From an uncultured delta proteobacterium (GTDB lineage: Bacteria > Myxococcota_A > UBA9160 > SZUA-336): a stretch of DNA of 64,000 nucleotides. Positions 6,187 through 13,546 of the stretch are shown one piece after another (positions within the stretch are counted from its first letter, which is position 1; every line of letters begins with the position of its first letter). The notes below the pieces were generated by a model. That model was not told the DNA's origin and did not search any database. It saw only the letters and a list, made by a program, of their open reading frames with translations. A program made the translations under genes and the position numbers. The stretch spans positions 128,001 through 192,000 of the forward strand of contig CAVPHD010000004.1 in the NCBI GenBank assembly GCA_963704165.1, written 5' to 3'.

Positions 6187-7089
6187 GTGACGACTCCGAG
6201 CGACCCCAGTCCAGTGGCGACGGCGCATGACGGGCCGTCGCCGATCGAGGTGCCGTCCGAACGGCGTCGGCCACGTCTGGTCTCGATCCACGGCGCGCAG
6301 ATGGGCAAGCGCTGGGTCGTCGAAGCGTGCGGCATCGTGATCGGGCGCGACCCCGCTCGAGCGGGCCTCGTTCTTCCCGATCCCGCCATCTCCGCACGCC
6401 ATTGCGCGGTGGAGCACGATCCCGCGACGGGTGAGTTCAGAGTGAGCGATCTCGGCTCGCGAAACGGCACGTTCGTGAACGGCGAGAAGATCGGTGAGCG
6501 GCGGCTGTGTGACGGCGACAAGCTCTTCGTCGGTGAGACGGTCCTCGCGTGGAGCCTCGACGACGAGCTCGGAAAGGGATTTCACAGCGGCGTCGAGTCC
6601 CGTGTGGACCTCGACGCCCTGACGGGATTGCTCGTGAAGCGCGCCTTCGACCTGGAGCTGGCACGGGCGTTCGCGCAGGCGAGGGACTTCGAGAAGGGCT
6701 TGTCCCTGCTGATGATGGACGTTGGCGAGTACGAGACGATCGACCCGGACCGGTCGCGCAAGACGAGCGCACTCTGTGTCGCGGAGATCGGGCGGATCAT
6801 TGGCGCGGAGCTCGTGAGCGCGGGACGCGCATGCCGCTTCGGGGGAGACCGCTTCATCGCACTTCTTCATCCCGCGGAGCGCGAAGCTGCCTGGGCGCTC
6901 GCAGAGCGGATCTGTGCCCGAGTCTCGGCCTACACGTTCGAGCGTCACGGCGCGCCTGTGCACTCCATGATCAGCATCGGGATTGCGGAGCTAGGACCGG
7001 AGTTGCCGACTCCAGATCATCTCTTGCAGGTCGCGGACGAGGCGTGCTTTCGCGCGCGGCGCGCCGGGCGAACCCAGGTGTCGCGTTGA
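6187..7089 (+). CDS. FHA domain + degenerate GGDEF domain protein
   Basis: FHA motifs IGRD, ISARH, DLGSRNGTFVNG. GGDEF-like DALTGL...RFGGDRF...SIG. Confidence 0.85.
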   Translation: MTTPSDPSPVATAHDGPSPIEVPSERRRPRLVSIHGAQMGKRWVVEACGIVIGRDPARAGLVLPDPAISARHCAVEHDPATGEFRVSDLGSRNGTFVNGEKIGERRLCDGDKLFVGETVLAWSLDDELGKGFHSGVESRVDLDALTGLLVKRAFDLELARAFAQARDFEKGLSLLMMDVGEYETIDPDRSRKTSALCVAEIGRIIGAELVSAGRACRFGGDRFIALLHPAEREAAWALAERICARVSAYTFERHGAPVHSMISIGIAELGPELPTPDHLLQVADEACFRARRAGRTQVSR

Positions 7090-7121
7090 CGCGGCTGCGC
7101 TCACGGTGCAACCTCGCCGTG

Positions 7122-7481
7122 ATGGCGATTCGGAGATCGTGCGCGAAGACCACAGTCGCGATCCTGCTTCTGGCGCTGATCGCGGCGCCGATCGCGAGCG
7201 AGGTGTTCGCCCAGAGTGATCCGCACGGCTGCTGCCCCGAGCCGGCGGCGACGACCGATGCGCCCGAGCCCTGCCAGTACGTCGCTCCGCTCGCATGCTG
7301 TGCGCAGCTCGCCGTGCCCGCGACGACCGTGAATGCGCACCACGAGCTCGGGGGCGATTTCGTGGTGACCGCTCTCGTCGGCCCGTCACCCGCTCCTCTC
7401 GCTCCGACCTTCGCCCGCGCGCGGAACGGTCACGGGCCGCCACAAGCCGAACGGATACGCACGATCGTTCTCCAGCTCTGA
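7122..7481 (+). CDS. Small secreted Cys/His-rich leader protein with a Pro-rich tail and HGPP motif (CruR/CutF-like uORF)
   Basis: 119 aa: signal-like N-terminus, HGCC, PC, ACC, HH, then PSPAPLAP...NGHGPP. Lies directly upstream of the cus-type operon. Confidence 0.7.
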   Translation: MAIRRSCAKTTVAILLLALIAAPIASEVFAQSDPHGCCPEPAATTDAPEPCQYVAPLACCAQLAVPATTVNAHHELGGDFVVTALVGPSPAPLAPTFARARNGHGPPQAERIRTIVLQL

Positions 7482-7581
7482 GTCGACTCCTCTCGCGGTT
7501 CCCCGGGATTCCATCCCGCTTTCCGTGAACTCGCGAGCGTGCCGTCGCCCGACCGCACGCTCCGTGCCAGGAGAGATCGAC
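7482..7581 (+). promoter_or_regulatory. Predicted three-way RNA junction sequestering the SD of the TolC gene
   Basis: GTCGA-CTCCT (7482-7491) is complementary to AGGAG (7569-7573) and TCGAC (7577-7581). It encloses hairpins 7492-7537 and 7537-7560. Pairing read by eye, not folded computationally. Confidence 0.6.
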
Positions 7582-8937
7582 ATGTCGGAGTGGAAAGCAC
7601 GCGTTTGCGCGGCGGTGGTCGCGCTCTCGGCCTGTCTGGCCTGCGCGAGCGCGCCCCAGCTCGAACGCTACCGGACGCAGCGTCAGGAACTCGCGCGCGT
7701 GCAGGCCGACGCCCGGCCCGCAGAATGGAGCGACCCGTTCGCGGGCGCCGCGGCGCTCTCGCGACGCGATCTGGTGTCCCAGGTGCTCGCCCGCAACCCG
7801 GGCCTCGAAGCGTCCCGCTCGGCATGGCAGGCCGCGCTCGCTCGCTACCCGCAGGCGATCTCGTTGTCGGACCCGATGCTCGGATACGGAGTACGGCCGC
7901 GTTCGTTCTCCTCGAGCGAGGTCGACCCGGCGCACGACGTCGGCCTCTCGCAGCCACTGCCATTCCCCGGAAAGCTCGGCCTTCGCGGCGAGATGGCGCT
8001 CGCTTCGGCGGACGCAGCCGGTGAAGCCGTCGCATCGGAGCGCGTCCGGCTGGCCGCGCTCGCCTCGGTCTCGTTCGACGAGTACTGGCTCGCGGCTCGC
8101 GCGCACGAGACGAACGCAGAGCATCTCGCGTGGCTCGAGTCGTTGCACGTAGCGACGCTCGCGCGGTACGCGACCGGAGCCGGTTCCCAGCTCGACGTGC
8201 TCGAAGCGGAGACCGAGATCGCGATGCTCTTGCACGCCGAGATCGAGATCGCGACGGCTCGCAGGATCGCGGTCGAACGGATCAACCTGCTCCTGCACCG
8301 CGATCCCGCGCTTCCACTTCCCGCGCCCCCGCGCACGCTCGAAGAAGCCGCGGGTCACGATCTCGACGTCGATGCGCTCGTCGCTCGGGCGCTCGCACGT
8401 CGCCCCGAGCTTCGGGCGCGCGAAGCCGAGACGCGCGCGAACGAGGCCGCGGTGGAGCTCGCCGAGCGCGAGTTTCTGCCCGACTTCTCGCTTCAGGGCG
8501 GATACATGGGATCGATGCAAGAGACACCATTGCGGCCGTTCGTCGGGATCGAGCTCAATCTCCCGATCCAGCTCGGTCGAAGGCGGGCCGCGCTCGACGA
8601 GGCGCAGGCGCTGCTCGCACGCGGACGCAGTCGGAGCCGAGGGCTCGAGGATCGTGTGCGATTCGAGGTGATCATCGCGGTCGAACGCTTGCATGAAGCG
8701 CGACACAAGCTCGAGCTCACGCGAGAGCGGCTGCTGCCGGCGGCGCGCGGCCGTTCCGTGTCCGCGCGCGCGGCGTTCCGGACCGGACAGGTGGGGTTCC
8801 TCGAGCTCGTCGAAGCCGAGCGGGCCCTCCGCGCCGCCGAGTTCGGCGAACACGAAACCGAGGCGGAGCTGTCGCGTCGACACGCAGAGCTCGCGCGCGC
8901 TCTCGGCGAGACGGCCGCATTCGAGGAGGTGAAGTGA
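7582..8937 (+). CDS. TolC/CusC-family outer-membrane efflux protein
   Basis: SD AGGAG, lipoprotein-like signal, SQPLPFPGKL motif, two OEP repeats. First gene of the RND operon. Confidence 0.88.
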   Translation: MSEWKARVCAAVVALSACLACASAPQLERYRTQRQELARVQADARPAEWSDPFAGAAALSRRDLVSQVLARNPGLEASRSAWQAALARYPQAISLSDPMLGYGVRPRSFSSSEVDPAHDVGLSQPLPFPGKLGLRGEMALASADAAGEAVASERVRLAALASVSFDEYWLAARAHETNAEHLAWLESLHVATLARYATGAGSQLDVLEAETEIAMLLHAEIEIATARRIAVERINLLLHRDPALPLPAPPRTLEEAAGHDLDVDALVARALARRPELRAREAETRANEAAVELAEREFLPDFSLQGGYMGSMQETPLRPFVGIELNLPIQLGRRRAALDEAQALLARGRSRSRGLEDRVRFEVIIAVERLHEARHKLELTRERLLPAARGRSVSARAAFRTGQVGFLELVEAERALRAAEFGEHETEAELSRRHAELARALGETAAFEEVK

Positions 8938-10412
8938 TGATTCGAGATCGATTCACGCGACCGTTCGTGGTCCTCGCACTCCTGCTCCTGGCGTCGATTT
9001 CGTGCCGCGAAGAGACGCGGACGCCGGGCGCCCCATCGGCGGTATTCGCGGGGCAGGGGCTACACGTGGACGTGTCGATCCCCGAAGGCGCCCCGCACCC
9101 GGGCGAGAACGAGTTCCGGATCCGCGTTCGCGACGCGAGAGGGAATCCGGTCGATGATGCGCGCGTCGGCTTCGCCTACAGCATGCCGATGGCGGGTATG
9201 GCCACGATGGGCGGAAGGGTCGTGGGCGAGCCGGTCGGAGCGGGCGAGTACCGTGCGATTGGGTCGCTCGAGATGGCGGGCACGTGGCGGATCGAGATCG
9301 AGGTCGCACGCGCCTCGGGCGAGACCGCGCGCGCCACGGGCTCGCTGCGAACCGGGGCTCCGGGTCTCGAGCTCGATTCGGGTTCGGCCGCGTTCGCCGT
9401 GAGCGAGAGCATCCGCGCTGAAGGGGTCGTGCGCATCGATCCGGCGCGCCTGCAGACGATCGGCGTCCGATTCGCGAGCGTCGAGCGGGGACCGCTCGAA
9501 CGCGTCGTCCGGGCGACCGGAACCGTCGAGTGGGACGAGACGGAGCTCGTCGACGTCTCGCTGAAGGTGCGCGGCTGGGTGCGCGAGCTGTACGCGGACT
9601 CGCTCGGTGCGCGCGTCGAGGCCGGCGACGCGCTCTTCAGCGTCTACAGCCCCGACCTATACGCCGCGGAGACGGAGTACCTCGAAGCGCTGCGCGAGCA
9701 GACGGCTGCCCGTGCGACCGGTGCTCCCGACCGGGCCGATGCGCTCGTGCGCGCGGCGCGCGCGCGCCTTCGTCTCTGGGATCTCGCGGACTCCGACATC
9801 GATGCGATCGCCGCGCGTGGCGAGCCACTCGAGGCGGTGCCGGTCCGCGCGCGTACGAGCGGATTCGTCCTCGAGAAGAACGTCGTCTCGGGCGGCTCGA
9901 TCGAGCCGGGAATGCGGCTGTTCCGGATCGCGCCGCTCGATCGCGTCTGGGTCGATGCCCAGACCTTCGAGTCCGACGTGAAGCTGCTCCGGGTCGGCGA
10001 CTCGGCGATCGTGCGCGGACCGACGCTGCCCCCGAAAGGACTCGACGCGCGCATCGCCTGGGTCCATCCCTCGCTCGAGCTTTCCTCGCGGAGCTCGCGT
10101 GCCCGCCTCGAGCTCGACAATCCCGACTTCACGCTGCGGCCGGGGATGTGGGTCGAGGTCGAGCTTCGAGTCGCCCTCGGAGATCGTCTCCACGTACCCA
10201 TGTCGGCCGTGATCCACGCGGGCGCGCGGCGCGTGGTCTTCGTGGATCGCGGGGAGGGTCGGCTCGAGCCCCGCGACATCGAGACCGGCGCGACCGCCGA
10301 TCCCGACGTCGAGATCCTGTCGGGGCTCGAGCCCGGCGAACGAGTGGTGGTGGCGGGGAATTTCCTGGTCGCCGCCGAGAGCCGGCTCCAGTCGGCACTG
10401 GAGCAGTGGTGA
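8934..10412 (+). CDS. cusB: CusB-type RND periplasmic adaptor with an N-terminal Met-rich YtkA/FixH-like domain
   Basis: LFSVYSPDL, LRPGMW and GLEPGERVV..GNFL..AES motifs. N-terminal YSMPMAGMATMGG and GTWRIEI. Confidence 0.85.
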   Translation: MMIRDRFTRPFVVLALLLLASISCREETRTPGAPSAVFAGQGLHVDVSIPEGAPHPGENEFRIRVRDARGNPVDDARVGFAYSMPMAGMATMGGRVVGEPVGAGEYRAIGSLEMAGTWRIEIEVARASGETARATGSLRTGAPGLELDSGSAAFAVSESIRAEGVVRIDPARLQTIGVRFASVERGPLERVVRATGTVEWDETELVDVSLKVRGWVRELYADSLGARVEAGDALFSVYSPDLYAAETEYLEALREQTAARATGAPDRADALVRAARARLRLWDLADSDIDAIAARGEPLEAVPVRARTSGFVLEKNVVSGGSIEPGMRLFRIAPLDRVWVDAQTFESDVKLLRVGDSAIVRGPTLPPKGLDARIAWVHPSLELSSRSSRARLELDNPDFTLRPGMWVEVELRVALGDRLHVPMSAVIHAGARRVVFVDRGEGRLEPRDIETGATADPDVEILSGLEPGERVVVAGNFLVAAESRLQSALEQW

Positions 10413-13400
10413 TCGGGCGCATCATCGCTGGCTGCGCACGAAACCCGGGACTGACGCTCATCGGTGTCGCGGCGTTCTGCGTCTGGGGGATCTTCGCCGT
10501 GCGACAGACGCCCCTCGACGCGATTCCGGACCTGTCGGACGTGCAGGTGATCGTCTGGGCGGAGTGGCCGGGACGCGGGCCGGATCTGGTCGAGGATCAG
10601 ATCACCTACCCCGTGTCGTCGACGCTGCTCTCGGCGCCGCGCGTGCGCCACGTCCGCGGGCAGTCGTTCTTCGGGCTCTCGCTCGTGTACGCGATCTTCG
10701 AGGACGGCACCGATCCATACTGGGCCCGCAGCCGGGTGCTCGAGTACATGAACGCGGCCGCGGCGCGGCTGCCCGAAGGCGTCACGCCGACGCTCGGTCC
10801 CGACGCGACGGGGGTCGGCTGGGTCTTCGAGTACGCGCTCGTCGATCGAACCGGAAGGAACGATCTCGCAGAGCTTCGCAGCCTGCAGGACTGGAATCTG
10901 CGCTACGCGCTCTCGAGCGTGCACGGCGTCGCCGAGGTCGCGTCGATCGGCGGTTTCGTGAAGCAGTACCAGGTGCAGGTGAACCCCGAGCGCCTGCGCG
11001 CGTACGGAATCCCGCTCCGCGACGTCGTCGCCGCCGTCCGGGCCGCCAACCACGAAACGGGCGGCGGTGTGATCGAGCTGGCCGAGCACGAGCAGGTCGT
11101 GCGCGGCCGCGGATACGTGCGCTCGCTCGCGGATCTCGAGCAGGCTCCGCTTCGCGTGAATGCGCAGGGGACCGCCGTGCTCGTCCGCGACGTGGCGAAC
11201 GTGGTCTTCGGTCCGGATCTGCGGCGCGGCCTGGTCGAGCTCGACGGGCTCGGCGAGGTCGTCGGCGGGATCGTCGTGATGCGCTTCGGAGAGAACGCGC
11301 TCGCGGTGATCGACGCGGTCAAGGTCCGCCTCGAGGAGGTGCGCGCGAGCCTGCCCGAGGGGGTCGAGCTCGTCACGACCTACGACCGCTCCGAGCTGAT
11401 CCGCGCCGCCGTCGGAACGCTCTCGCGAACCCTGGTCGAGGAGATGATCGTCGTCTCGGTCGTGATCCTCGTCTTCCTGATGCACGTCCGAAGCGCGCTG
11501 ATCCCGATCCTGGTGATCCCGATCGGCATCTCGCTCGCGTTCATCCCGATGCTCTACCAGGGAGTGACCGCGAACATCATGTCGCTCGGCGGGATCGCGG
11601 TGGCGATCGGCGCGATGGTCGATGCGGCGATCATCGTCGTCGAGAACTCGCACAAGCGCCTCGAGGTGTGGCGAGAGGCCGGCGAACCCGGCGAGCGTCG
11701 GGACGTGATCGTCGCTGCGATGCAAGAGGTCGGGCCCAGCATCTTCTTCGCCTTGCTCGTGATCACCGTCTCGTTCCTTCCGATCTTCGCGCTCGAGGGC
11801 ACGGAAGGGCGGCTCTTCAAGCCTCTCGCCTTCACCAAGACGTACGCGATGGCTGCCGCGGCACTGCTCTCCGTGACGTTGACGCCGGCGCTCGCGGTGC
11901 TCTTGATTCGCGGTCGGATTCGCGACGAGCGCGCGAACCCGCTGAATCGCTGGCTCGTGGACGCCTACACTCCCGCGGTTCGCTTCGTCGTCCGACGGCG
12001 CGGCTGGGTCGCCGCCGCCGCGGTCGGGTTGATGGCGAGCGCGGTTCCGCCCTTCCTGCTCCTGGGCTCGGAGTTCATGCCGCCCTTGAACGAGGGCACG
12101 CTCCTGTACATGCCGACCGCGCCGCCGGGAATCGCCGTCGGCGAAGCCGGGCGCGTGCTCCAGAGCATGGATCGCGAGCTGCGAACGGTGCCCGAGGTCG
12201 AACGGGTCTTCGGCAAGATCGGACGGGCCGACACGCCCACCGATCCGGCTCCGCTCACGATGGTCGAGACGATCATCCAGCTCGCCCCGCGAGAGCGCTG
12301 GCGTCCGGGGCTCAGCTGGGACGCGCTCGTGCAGGAGCTCGACGAGAAGCTCCGCTACCCGGGCATGCCCAACCTGTGGTGGATGCCGATCCAGACGCGC
12401 ACGGAGATGCTCGCGACCGGCGTCCGCAGCCAGCTCGGCGTGAAGGTCTTCGGCGACGATCTCGATTCGGTCGAGCAAGCGGCGATCACGATCGCGAAGG
12501 CACTCGGCGGCGTTCCGGGCACGCGAAACGCGTTCGCGGAGCGCACCACGGGCGCGTTCTTCCTCGACGCCCGGATCGACCGCGTGCGTGCGTCCCGATA
12601 CGGGGTCTCGGCTGCGGATCTCAATCAGACGCTCGAAACGGCGATCGGCGGTTCCAACGTGTCGCAGACCGTCGAGGGACGGGAGCGGTACGCGATCAAC
12701 GTGCGCTACGCGCGCGAGTTCCGGGACGACGCCGAGGAGATCGGACGAACGCTCGTGCAGACGTCGAGCGGCGCGCTCGTTCCGCTGCGCGATCTCGCGG
12801 AGCTTCGCTTCACGACCGGTCCCGACATGGTGCGAAGTGAAGCGGGCAAGGTCGTCGGACTCGTCGCCGTCGACGTCTCCGGACGTCCGATCGTGGACTA
12901 CGTCGAAGAAGCGCGTCGGCACATCGAGTCCAGCGTGACGCTTCCCGCGGGCACTCGAATCGCCTGGGTCGGCCAGTTCGAGTACTTCGAGCGCGCGAAG
13001 GCGCGCCTCGGCTGGGTGTTGCCGCTCACGTTGGCTCTGGTCGGCCTGCTGCTCTACCTGAACACGCGCTCGGCGGTCGAGACCTCGATCGTGCTGCTCG
13101 CGGTGCCGTTCTCGCTCATCGGCGCGATCTGGCTGCTCTTCGCGCTCGAGTACGACATGTCGGTCGCGGTCTGGGTGGGAATCATCGCGCTCGCGGGACT
13201 CGACGCGCAGACCGGAGTCGTGATGCTCCTCTACCTGTCGGTCGCCCACCGCGAGCGCGAAGCCGCCGGCACGTTGCGCGGCGCTCGCGACCTCGAGAAC
13301 GCGATCGTCGAGGGTGCCGCGCGGCGCATCCGGCCGAAACTGATGACCGTGCTGACGATGATGCTCGGCCTCGTGCCGCTTCTCTTCAGCAGCGGCACCG

Positions 13401-13546
13401 GTGCGGACGTGATGAAGAGAGTCGCCGCGCCGATGGTCGGCGGGCTGGTCAGCTCGTTCGCGCTCGAGCTCCTCGTCTATCCGGCGCTCTTCGCGTTCTG
13501 GAAGGGGCGCTCCCTCACTCGACGCGAACGCGGAAGCGCAGCGTGA
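10409..13546 (+). CDS. cusA: CusA/CzcA heavy-metal efflux RND transporter (Cu+/Ag+ type)
   Basis: LDAIPDLSDVQVIV, GPDATGVGWV, GAMVDAAIIVVEN, RIRPKLMT. Methionines at the CusA triad positions (LYMPT, LTMVET, TEMLAT). Confidence 0.93.
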   Translation: MIGRIIAGCARNPGLTLIGVAAFCVWGIFAVRQTPLDAIPDLSDVQVIVWAEWPGRGPDLVEDQITYPVSSTLLSAPRVRHVRGQSFFGLSLVYAIFEDGTDPYWARSRVLEYMNAAAARLPEGVTPTLGPDATGVGWVFEYALVDRTGRNDLAELRSLQDWNLRYALSSVHGVAEVASIGGFVKQYQVQVNPERLRAYGIPLRDVVAAVRAANHETGGGVIELAEHEQVVRGRGYVRSLADLEQAPLRVNAQGTAVLVRDVANVVFGPDLRRGLVELDGLGEVVGGIVVMRFGENALAVIDAVKVRLEEVRASLPEGVELVTTYDRSELIRAAVGTLSRTLVEEMIVVSVVILVFLMHVRSALIPILVIPIGISLAFIPMLYQGVTANIMSLGGIAVAIGAMVDAAIIVVENSHKRLEVWREAGEPGERRDVIVAAMQEVGPSIFFALLVITVSFLPIFALEGTEGRLFKPLAFTKTYAMAAAALLSVTLTPALAVLLIRGRIRDERANPLNRWLVDAYTPAVRFVVRRRGWVAAAAVGLMASAVPPFLLLGSEFMPPLNEGTLLYMPTAPPGIAVGEAGRVLQSMDRELRTVPEVERVFGKIGRADTPTDPAPLTMVETIIQLAPRERWRPGLSWDALVQELDEKLRYPGMPNLWWMPIQTRTEMLATGVRSQLGVKVFGDDLDSVEQAAITIAKALGGVPGTRNAFAERTTGAFFLDARIDRVRASRYGVSAADLNQTLETAIGGSNVSQTVEGRERYAINVRYAREFRDDAEEIGRTLVQTSSGALVPLRDLAELRFTTGPDMVRSEAGKVVGLVAVDVSGRPIVDYVEEARRHIESSVTLPAGTRIAWVGQFEYFERAKARLGWVLPLTLALVGLLLYLNTRSAVETSIVLLAVPFSLIGAIWLLFALEYDMSVAVWVGIIALAGLDAQTGVVMLLYLSVAHREREAAGTLRGARDLENAIVEGAARRIRPKLMTVLTMMLGLVPLLFSSGTGADVMKRVAAPMVGGLVSSFALELLVYPALFAFWKGRSLTRRERGSAA

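Follow-up and report, generated by a model that had tools for sequence, protein, structure and literature searches.

A cysteine leader family and an SD-hiding helix likely form a conserved CutF-like switch before cusCBA-type efflux operons

The window (the whole 64,000-nucleotide stretch of DNA analysed) encodes a small, presumably exported cysteine leader directly ahead of a cusCBA-type operon and, judged from its sequence and that of its relatives, the locus is likely a conserved CutF-like switch. The original prediction had seen here a CutF/CruR-like cysteine leader with a helix hiding the SD of a Cu(I)/Ag(I)-type RND operon, a reading that stands; its assignment of the mechanism to an HGPP motif does not carry over to the family. 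The elements of the locus are as follows.

7086..7091, + strand: predicted sigma70-type -35 box TTGACG (sequence; TTGAC spacing in relatives)
7109..7114, + strand: predicted -10 box CAACCT, with a 17-nt spacer, 7 nt before the ATG (sequence; putative start site)
7122..7481, + strand: leader ORF of 119 aa, of an unnamed CutF-like family (ORF translation)
7122..7211, + strand: predicted Sec signal peptide, aa 1-30 (inspection; AlphaFold helix 6-30)
7230..7301, + strand: cysteine cluster C37-C38, C51, C59-C60, a candidate metal or disulfide site
7431..7442, + strand: HGPP (H104-G-P-P107), a clade-restricted candidate pause
7458..7481, + strand: C-terminal tail RTIVLQL-stop, a candidate stop-codon pause (conservation)
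7482..7491, + strand: anti-SD strand GTCGACTCCT (predicted fold; cognate/non-cognate tests)
7493..7566, + strand: two inner hairpins, 7493-7528 and 7530-7566, closed by the anti-SD helix (predicted fold)
7569..7581, + strand: SD AGGAG (7569-7573) and TCGAC (7577-7581) of the outer-membrane factor gene (sequence, fold)
7582..8937, + strand: outer-membrane efflux factor, CusC-like, with a lipoprotein signal by inspection (PF02321, E 4.8e-43)
8934..10412, + strand: CusB-like adaptor with an N-terminal YtkA-like domain (PF16576, PF13115)
10406..13546, + strand: CusA-type heavy-metal RND transporter (TIGR00914, 1093.8 bits, cut-off 701)

The three downstream genes encode the outer-membrane factor, CusB-like adaptor and CusA-type pump of the cusCBA-type efflux operon originally proposed. 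The best match of the adaptor is NF007303 (CusB), below its cut-off, while the best PDB match of the pump is E. coli CusA, with 1067 bits vs 555 for ZneA. The methionines of LLYMP, MVET and MLATG are aligned between the pump and CusA, and we take them to be the CusA periplasmic Cu-site triad. By these sequence comparisons the pump is a Cu(I)/Ag(I) RND transporter of the CusA type. No separate cusF was seen in the operon; the YtkA-like domain of the adaptor (PF13115, E 9e-14) lies at window 8934-9300.

The leader itself is present exactly as first described, a 119-aa uORF with the CC/C/CC cysteines, a histidine pair (H73-H74) and HGPP at 7431-7442, exactly 12 residues from the TGA stop. Its N-terminus is Sec-like by inspection (basic n-region, hydrophobic stretch, V-F-A at 28-30), and helix 6-30 is confident in an AlphaFold model that contains two helices and no further fold (pTM 0.29). 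The linker between the cysteine cluster and the tail is Pro/Ala-rich, unconserved among relatives and without predicted fold. The CutF-like rule, as given in passages of PMC9973294, calls for fewer than 150 aa, a same-strand downstream gene within 1000 nt, PP in the last 15 residues and a signal peptide; the window leader has 119 aa, a 100-nt gap to the next gene and P106-P107 within its last 15 residues. Neither the leader nor any of 18 aligned relatives has a Pfam or NCBIfam match at a meaningful level, PF11162 (DUF2946/CruR) included, and HYC_CC_PP (NF047658) finds no match in the genome at E<=1, nor in the leader family. The nearest Atlas clusters are unnamed, with DUF6769, DUF6660, DUF2946 and DUF8199 further off (DUF2946 appears only among the more distant clusters, at 0.93, with 23% of members).

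In order to define the family, 61 genomes were searched with the outer-membrane factor, yielding 21 loci at >=44% identity, the window locus included. Eighteen of these show the leader directly, one carries a related type, one abuts a contig end, and one came to light later through the profile. The profile, built from the 18 directly found leaders, matches 53 of the 225 genomes of the class, and an outer-membrane efflux gene lies directly downstream in 50 of 52 family loci, the other two being cut by contig ends. As an independent check, 20 further pump orthologs were fetched, five of them at contig ends without upstream DNA; the leader is present in all 15 remaining loci, which the leader profile had missed. 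A full-library search returned 197 leader representatives at E<=0.001, and 149 were analysed after P0009, a 1777-aa repeat protein, had been dropped from 150; alignment A4 leaves out another 7 rows that were long, short or duplicates. Selection by profile biases the resulting sets towards the tail, and the loci are kin. In the phylum outside the class, 401 genomes searched with the profile yielded a single marginal match, and no second leader of the window type was found in the 84% complete genome, where 1 of 21,268 stop-ended segments passed the filter. The leader family thus delimited appears to be unnamed and class-restricted.

Conservation within the leader is concentrated in its cysteines and its C-terminal end. 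C51 and C59 are kept in all 143 aligned relatives, C60 in 141, C38 in 137 and C37 in 132. The histidine pair, which had been listed with the cysteines as a ligand, fared otherwise: columns 73-74 are mostly P or A in the same 143 relatives, the pair was rejected as a ligand, and no His or Met of the leader is conserved among them. The tail follows a proline-free consensus, [LR]-[ST]-V-V-L-[RQL]-[LIV]-stop, with V at -4 in 47, L at -3 in 46 and L/I/V at -1 in 48 of 52 loci; the same positions are kept in 135, 141 and 141 of the 149 representatives, and the tail is found in all 15 pump-selected loci. Synonymous codons vary at positions -3, -4 and -6 over the 52 loci, indicating that the tail is conserved at the protein level. 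The last Cys-Cys likewise keeps its distance from the stop, at 59.2±2.2 residues in 50 of 52 loci, 57.9±2.4 in 146 of 149 representatives and 57-62 in the 15 pump-selected loci. Residues that cause stalling must already sit in the ribosome tunnel, and a conserved tail together with a spacing measured to the stop therefore suggests that the ribosome pauses on the final codons or during termination.

The last sense codon (window 7476-7481, with the stop) is also constrained. Its third base is C in 51 of the 52 family loci (CTC, ATC or GTC) and in 14 of 15 pump-selected loci, compared with 747 of 1503 long genomic ORFs; a last-codon Leu is CTC in 29 of 29 family cases vs 43 of 82 genome-wide, and two codons earlier CTG and CTC are used equally for Leu. 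Possibly this reflects an effect of the P-site tRNA on termination. Pairing of the last codons with the SD region was considered as the reason for tail conservation and rejected, cognate partners not being preferred and pairing being low; in the pump-selected loci the third base of the last sense codon does not pair mainly with the SD.

In both the MFE and the centroid folds of 7400-7620, the 10 nt after the stop pair with AGGAG and TCGAC and close the two hairpins, which confirms the helix originally drawn. The window fold has a z-score of -2.07, with 6 of 200 shuffles as stable. Its GTCGA/TCGAC extension is particular to the window locus, and the sequence of the inner hairpins varies among relatives. 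RNAalifold on a MAFFT alignment returned no consensus structure, as the intergenic regions range from 41 to 115 nt, and pairing tests anchored at the stop and at the SD were used in its place on 51 loci, L060 being left out at a contig end. In 50 of the 51 the helix begins between +1 and +6 from the stop, and in the pump-selected loci RBS pairing is strongest at +5 to +12. Between the 18 nt that follow the stop and the -26..-1 region of the same locus the duplex energy is -17.3 kcal/mol, vs -13.4 for non-cognate regions. The cognate partner is among the five best of 51 in 24 loci, compared with 3-9 loci for each of four control segments; it comes first in no more than 4 loci because relatives share sequence. 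In an SD-anchored ungapped register over 47 loci (4 without an SD core left out), the cognate extension is 2.19 pairs vs a maximum of 2.09 in 10,000 permutations, the register having been fitted in the same way for the controls and the loci being kin and so not independent. At the position two bases before GAG, counted in 43 loci, C-G pairs occur 21 times, U-A 5, A-U 2 and G-C 1, with 4 wobble pairs. The covariation of the anti-SD strand that the original prediction proposed to look for was therefore recovered, and the predicted fold and covariation together describe an intergenic stem of the CutF type that hides the SD of the next gene.

Four of the 51 loci lack a GAGG/GGAG core. A subclade including L068, L073 and L080 (also L090 and L092) has no such core before the automatically chosen pump start, and shows a run of C behind the stop and GGGG immediately downstream of the ATG, so that either the start or the region involved in pairing may be different in these loci.

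The consequence of ribosome position was evaluated by forcing open a 30-nt footprint and computing the cost of opening the RBS. In the window the free RNA has a cost of 18.3 kcal/mol; a ribosome at HGPP lowers it to 17.1, and one with the stop codon in its A site to 8.6. Over the 51 loci the median drop is 0.4 kcal/mol at codon -14 (the HGPP position) vs 3.8 at the stop, and a drop of >=3 kcal/mol is obtained in 32 loci with the stop in the A site and in 7 at the HGPP position; the modelled stop-site ribosome gains less than 3 kcal/mol in the other 19. The model agrees with an SD opened only by a stop-proximal ribosome, so that the ON state would need a ribosome at the stop, and it bears out the earlier argument that a ribosome stalled at HGPP sits too far upstream to open the SD.

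This geometry is what the original prediction relied on in combining the logic of CruR with an anti-SD output: by default the ribosome would stall at HGPP (OFF), and metal would free it to reach the stop and open the SD (ON). HGPP is a stalling and under-represented motif according to passages of PMC12992588; in the window it lies 43 residues after C60 (45 to P106), near the 45 of CruR (PMC9426467), and it is kept with varying synonymous Pro codons across 5 same-genus loci. PP stands at -14/-13 in 11 of the 52 loci; by clade, it recurs in 8 of the 9 rows that enclose the window and in a separate clade of 3 rows. HGPP, however, is found in 5 of 52 loci, all in one 5-row clade of a quick pump-protein tree (48 of 51 rows, 3 with short or broken pump translations dropped), in 6 of 149 representatives and in none of the 15 loci chosen only by their pump gene. 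The looser [RH][AG]PP, whose conservation was originally to be checked, holds within that 5-row clade and fails family-wide (8 of 149 representatives). Among the last 15 residues PP is found in no more than 15 of the 52 loci and 36 of the 149 representatives, and the distance from Cys-Cys to the nearest PP (SD 4.7 over 56 proteins) is looser than that from Cys-Cys to the stop. Most relatives keep the cysteines, spacing, tail and helix without PP near -14, and the conserved residues downstream of the supposed stall site are left unexplained. Moreover, most RAPP-like words tried in ordinary proteins gave no arrest, as passages of PMC10987492 report. HGPP is thus not the core of the leader family, and as a family stall motif it is not supported, partly along the line of non-conservation that had been named beforehand. 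Release from HGPP, which we consider rather unlikely, cannot be the family rule and finds its real support within the window's clade; it may be confined to that clade, or else may precede a stop-site pause as an initial gate.

The leader appears to have a promoter of its own. TTGAC is found 34-39 nt upstream of an in-frame start codon in 55 of the 66 family loci, and exactly 36 in 28, against a chance of 0.65% per 30-nt window, the start nearest 36 having been chosen where several were possible. Columns 24-28 after TTGAC are T/A-rich in relatives, an SD-like word precedes only 12 of these 55 starts, and the promoter spacer has no conserved columns among the family loci. The spacing of TTGAC, the rarity of SD-like words and the unconserved spacer together point to a transcript that would be leaderless and unregulated. 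A strict-consensus promoter/terminator scanner made no call at the locus. As originally noted, neither cusRS nor cueR is adjacent, the two upstream neighbours being an FHA-GGDEF gene and a histidine kinase. The stop codon of the FHA-GGDEF gene (6187-7089) overlaps the predicted -35 box of the leader, as it does in several same-genus relatives.

Elsewhere in the genome, a CusR/CopR-type response regulator scores above cut-off beside a sensor kinase (G000:C5:7294-9317), followed by a membrane protein without identified family and with no copper gene recognised alongside, and there are four MerR-family and one CsoR-family matches. Transcriptional control by such regulators is possible, and with it plain translational coupling, in which each terminating ribosome would briefly open the SD with no metal sensing at the ribosome, the leader being an exported cysteine chaperone or buffer. 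The stop-adjacent helix would suffice for this, and the tail would then be a periplasmic protease signal, since it fits the hydrophobic-x-hydrophobic C-terminal signal of PDZ/HtrA specificity. Coupling leaves unexplained both the fixed 59±2 spacing over an unconserved linker and the C-ending last codon, and its transcriptional copper control finds no conserved column in the promoter spacer and no TACC-N7-GGTA palindrome, which we take to be CsoR-operator-like, in any of the 52 window-family loci. We judge this explanation unlikely.

The reading that we favour, tentatively and at a little short of even confidence, is a CutF-like switch in which metal prolongs a pause at the stop set by the tail. 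A predicted leaderless, unregulated promoter would drive the leader, whose cysteine cluster would emerge in the periplasm at the moment when the ribosome comes to the stop codon; with about 30 residues in the tunnel and about 17 across the membrane, as estimated in a passage of PMC9973294, a cluster 59 residues away would be clear in the periplasm. Copper or silver on the cluster would then prolong the pause set by the V-V-L-x-L tail, and the paused ribosome would occupy the anti-SD strand and leave the cusC ribosome-binding site free (ON). Without metal, disulfide folding and Sec pulling would lead to quick termination, and the helix would close again, keeping the pump low. We infer the leaderless start, the export, any pause, the part played by metal and the direction of the response, metal being expected to prolong the pause, as for CutF, because the downstream operon is an exporter. 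Against the pause at the stop, the 59-residue spacing exceeds the 45 of CruR and CutF, a distance that C60 to P106 of the window leader does match.

The more specific version, a proline-free termination arrest ([ST]-V-V-L-R-L-stop) on a leaderless mRNA, tuned from across the membrane by metal at a cysteine cluster that lies exactly one tunnel-plus-translocon length (about 59 residues) upstream, seems to us doubtful. The same stop-site switch may also answer to periplasmic disulfide formation or Sec throughput, with copper acting only indirectly. Five near-invariant cysteines without any conserved His or Met would suit such a cue, and the CutF model itself invokes blocked disulfides (passages of bioRxiv 10.1101/2025.02.05.636593); the dedicated CusA-type pump in the window and the outer-membrane efflux gene that comes next in 50 of 52 loci speak for metal instead, and we hold this cue to be quite improbable.

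Among known systems, the closest is CutF-cutO of Rhodobacter capsulatus. In the passages available of PMC8456105, PMC9973294 and bioRxiv 10.1101/2025.02.05.636593, CutF is an exported cysteine leader of about 118 aa, first in a copper-detoxification operon, in which a Cu-induced stall opens an SD hidden, as at the window locus, in an intergenic stem. The two differ in their cysteine motif (CxxxC in CutF, C-C...C-x7-C-C in the window leader), in the distance from that motif to the end (45 residues vs 59 in the window family) and in the end itself, where CutF has PPP two residues before the stop and the window leader a hydrophobic tail without PPP; unlike CutF, the window leader is also predicted to be leaderless. 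CruR of Bordetella pertussis (Bp2923, DUF2946/PF11162) is likewise a uORF heading a copper operon, with a Cys motif about 45 residues before R/H-A/G-P-P as in the window's clade (passages of PMC9426467), and its arrest is shown in PMC12992588. The window leader, in contrast, lacks CxxC and any PF11162 match, and its motif lies 12 residues before the end rather than the 3 of CruR and is not family-wide; CruR controls an importer through Rho, whereas the window leader would control an exporter through a predicted anti-SD.

Small cysteine leaders also precede heavy-metal RND operons in Cupriavidus metallidurans (CusD, SilD and CzcI; PMC9973294), of which CzcI is said there to be without a proline motif; none has a profile match with the window family. 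Since passages of PMC9973294 name the outer-membrane efflux genes (CusC/CzcC/SilC) as the commonest CutF-like neighbours and list SilD, CusD and CzcI, the context of a leader before an efflux pump is already known, though no tested example before a CusCBA-type pump was found in the literature searched. Arrest that depends on the stop codon exists for the NSP-, NAP- and DGMK-stop leaders, which in passages of PMC10987492 share with the window family conserved last residues directly before the stop. Their arrest occurs with the stop in the A site, where for the window family it is only surmised; their tail chemistry is different, and they precede sec genes or sense a cytoplasmic ligand. No arrest motif in passages of the papers cited here looks like the window tail. 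No description of this tail, of a 59-residue spacing or of a leaderless start was found in the literature searched, which left subscription journals mostly uncovered and the cluster logos of PMC9973294 uncompared.

A second leader family (alignment A3) also occurs before outer-membrane efflux genes, with 16 paralogs at about 30% identity and one closer homolog (L016, L024-L026, L028, L031, L117, L119, L124, L129, L130, L132, L133, L135, L138, L140 and L143). The pump is CusA-like wherever the locus reached it. These leaders show the pattern C-x3-C...CH...C-x-C, end in PPPDILLLKSTLLI-stop and have their last Cys 58-64 residues from the stop, with a predicted SD-covering stem in most of those folded. 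They appear to follow the same design as the window family; kinship between the two was not established, the profile match covering only 11 columns. The TACC-N7-GGTA palindrome stands just upstream in 7 of the 17 loci (L026:752, L031:811, L119:416, L124:7499, L132:6710, L140:500 and L143:384) vs none of the 52 of the window family, and some A3 operons may be under both transcriptional and translational control.

In the literature found, so far as its passages go, CutF and CruR are the only metal-sensing leaders that have been dissected, and both are proline-based with opposite outcomes. The window family makes a clean test case: its Cys-to-stop spacing is fixed, its helix covaries, and its natural variants include leaders that carry HGPP and leaders that lack it. 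Should the stalling reside in the tail, the tail would be a new termination-arrest sequence, and surveys filtered for PP would miss about three quarters of such sensors (36 of 149 representatives pass). If the termination-arrest reading is true, an extracytoplasmic ligand would control peptide release rather than elongation, and the family would represent a class of metal-sensing leaders mostly missed by published PP-based searches.
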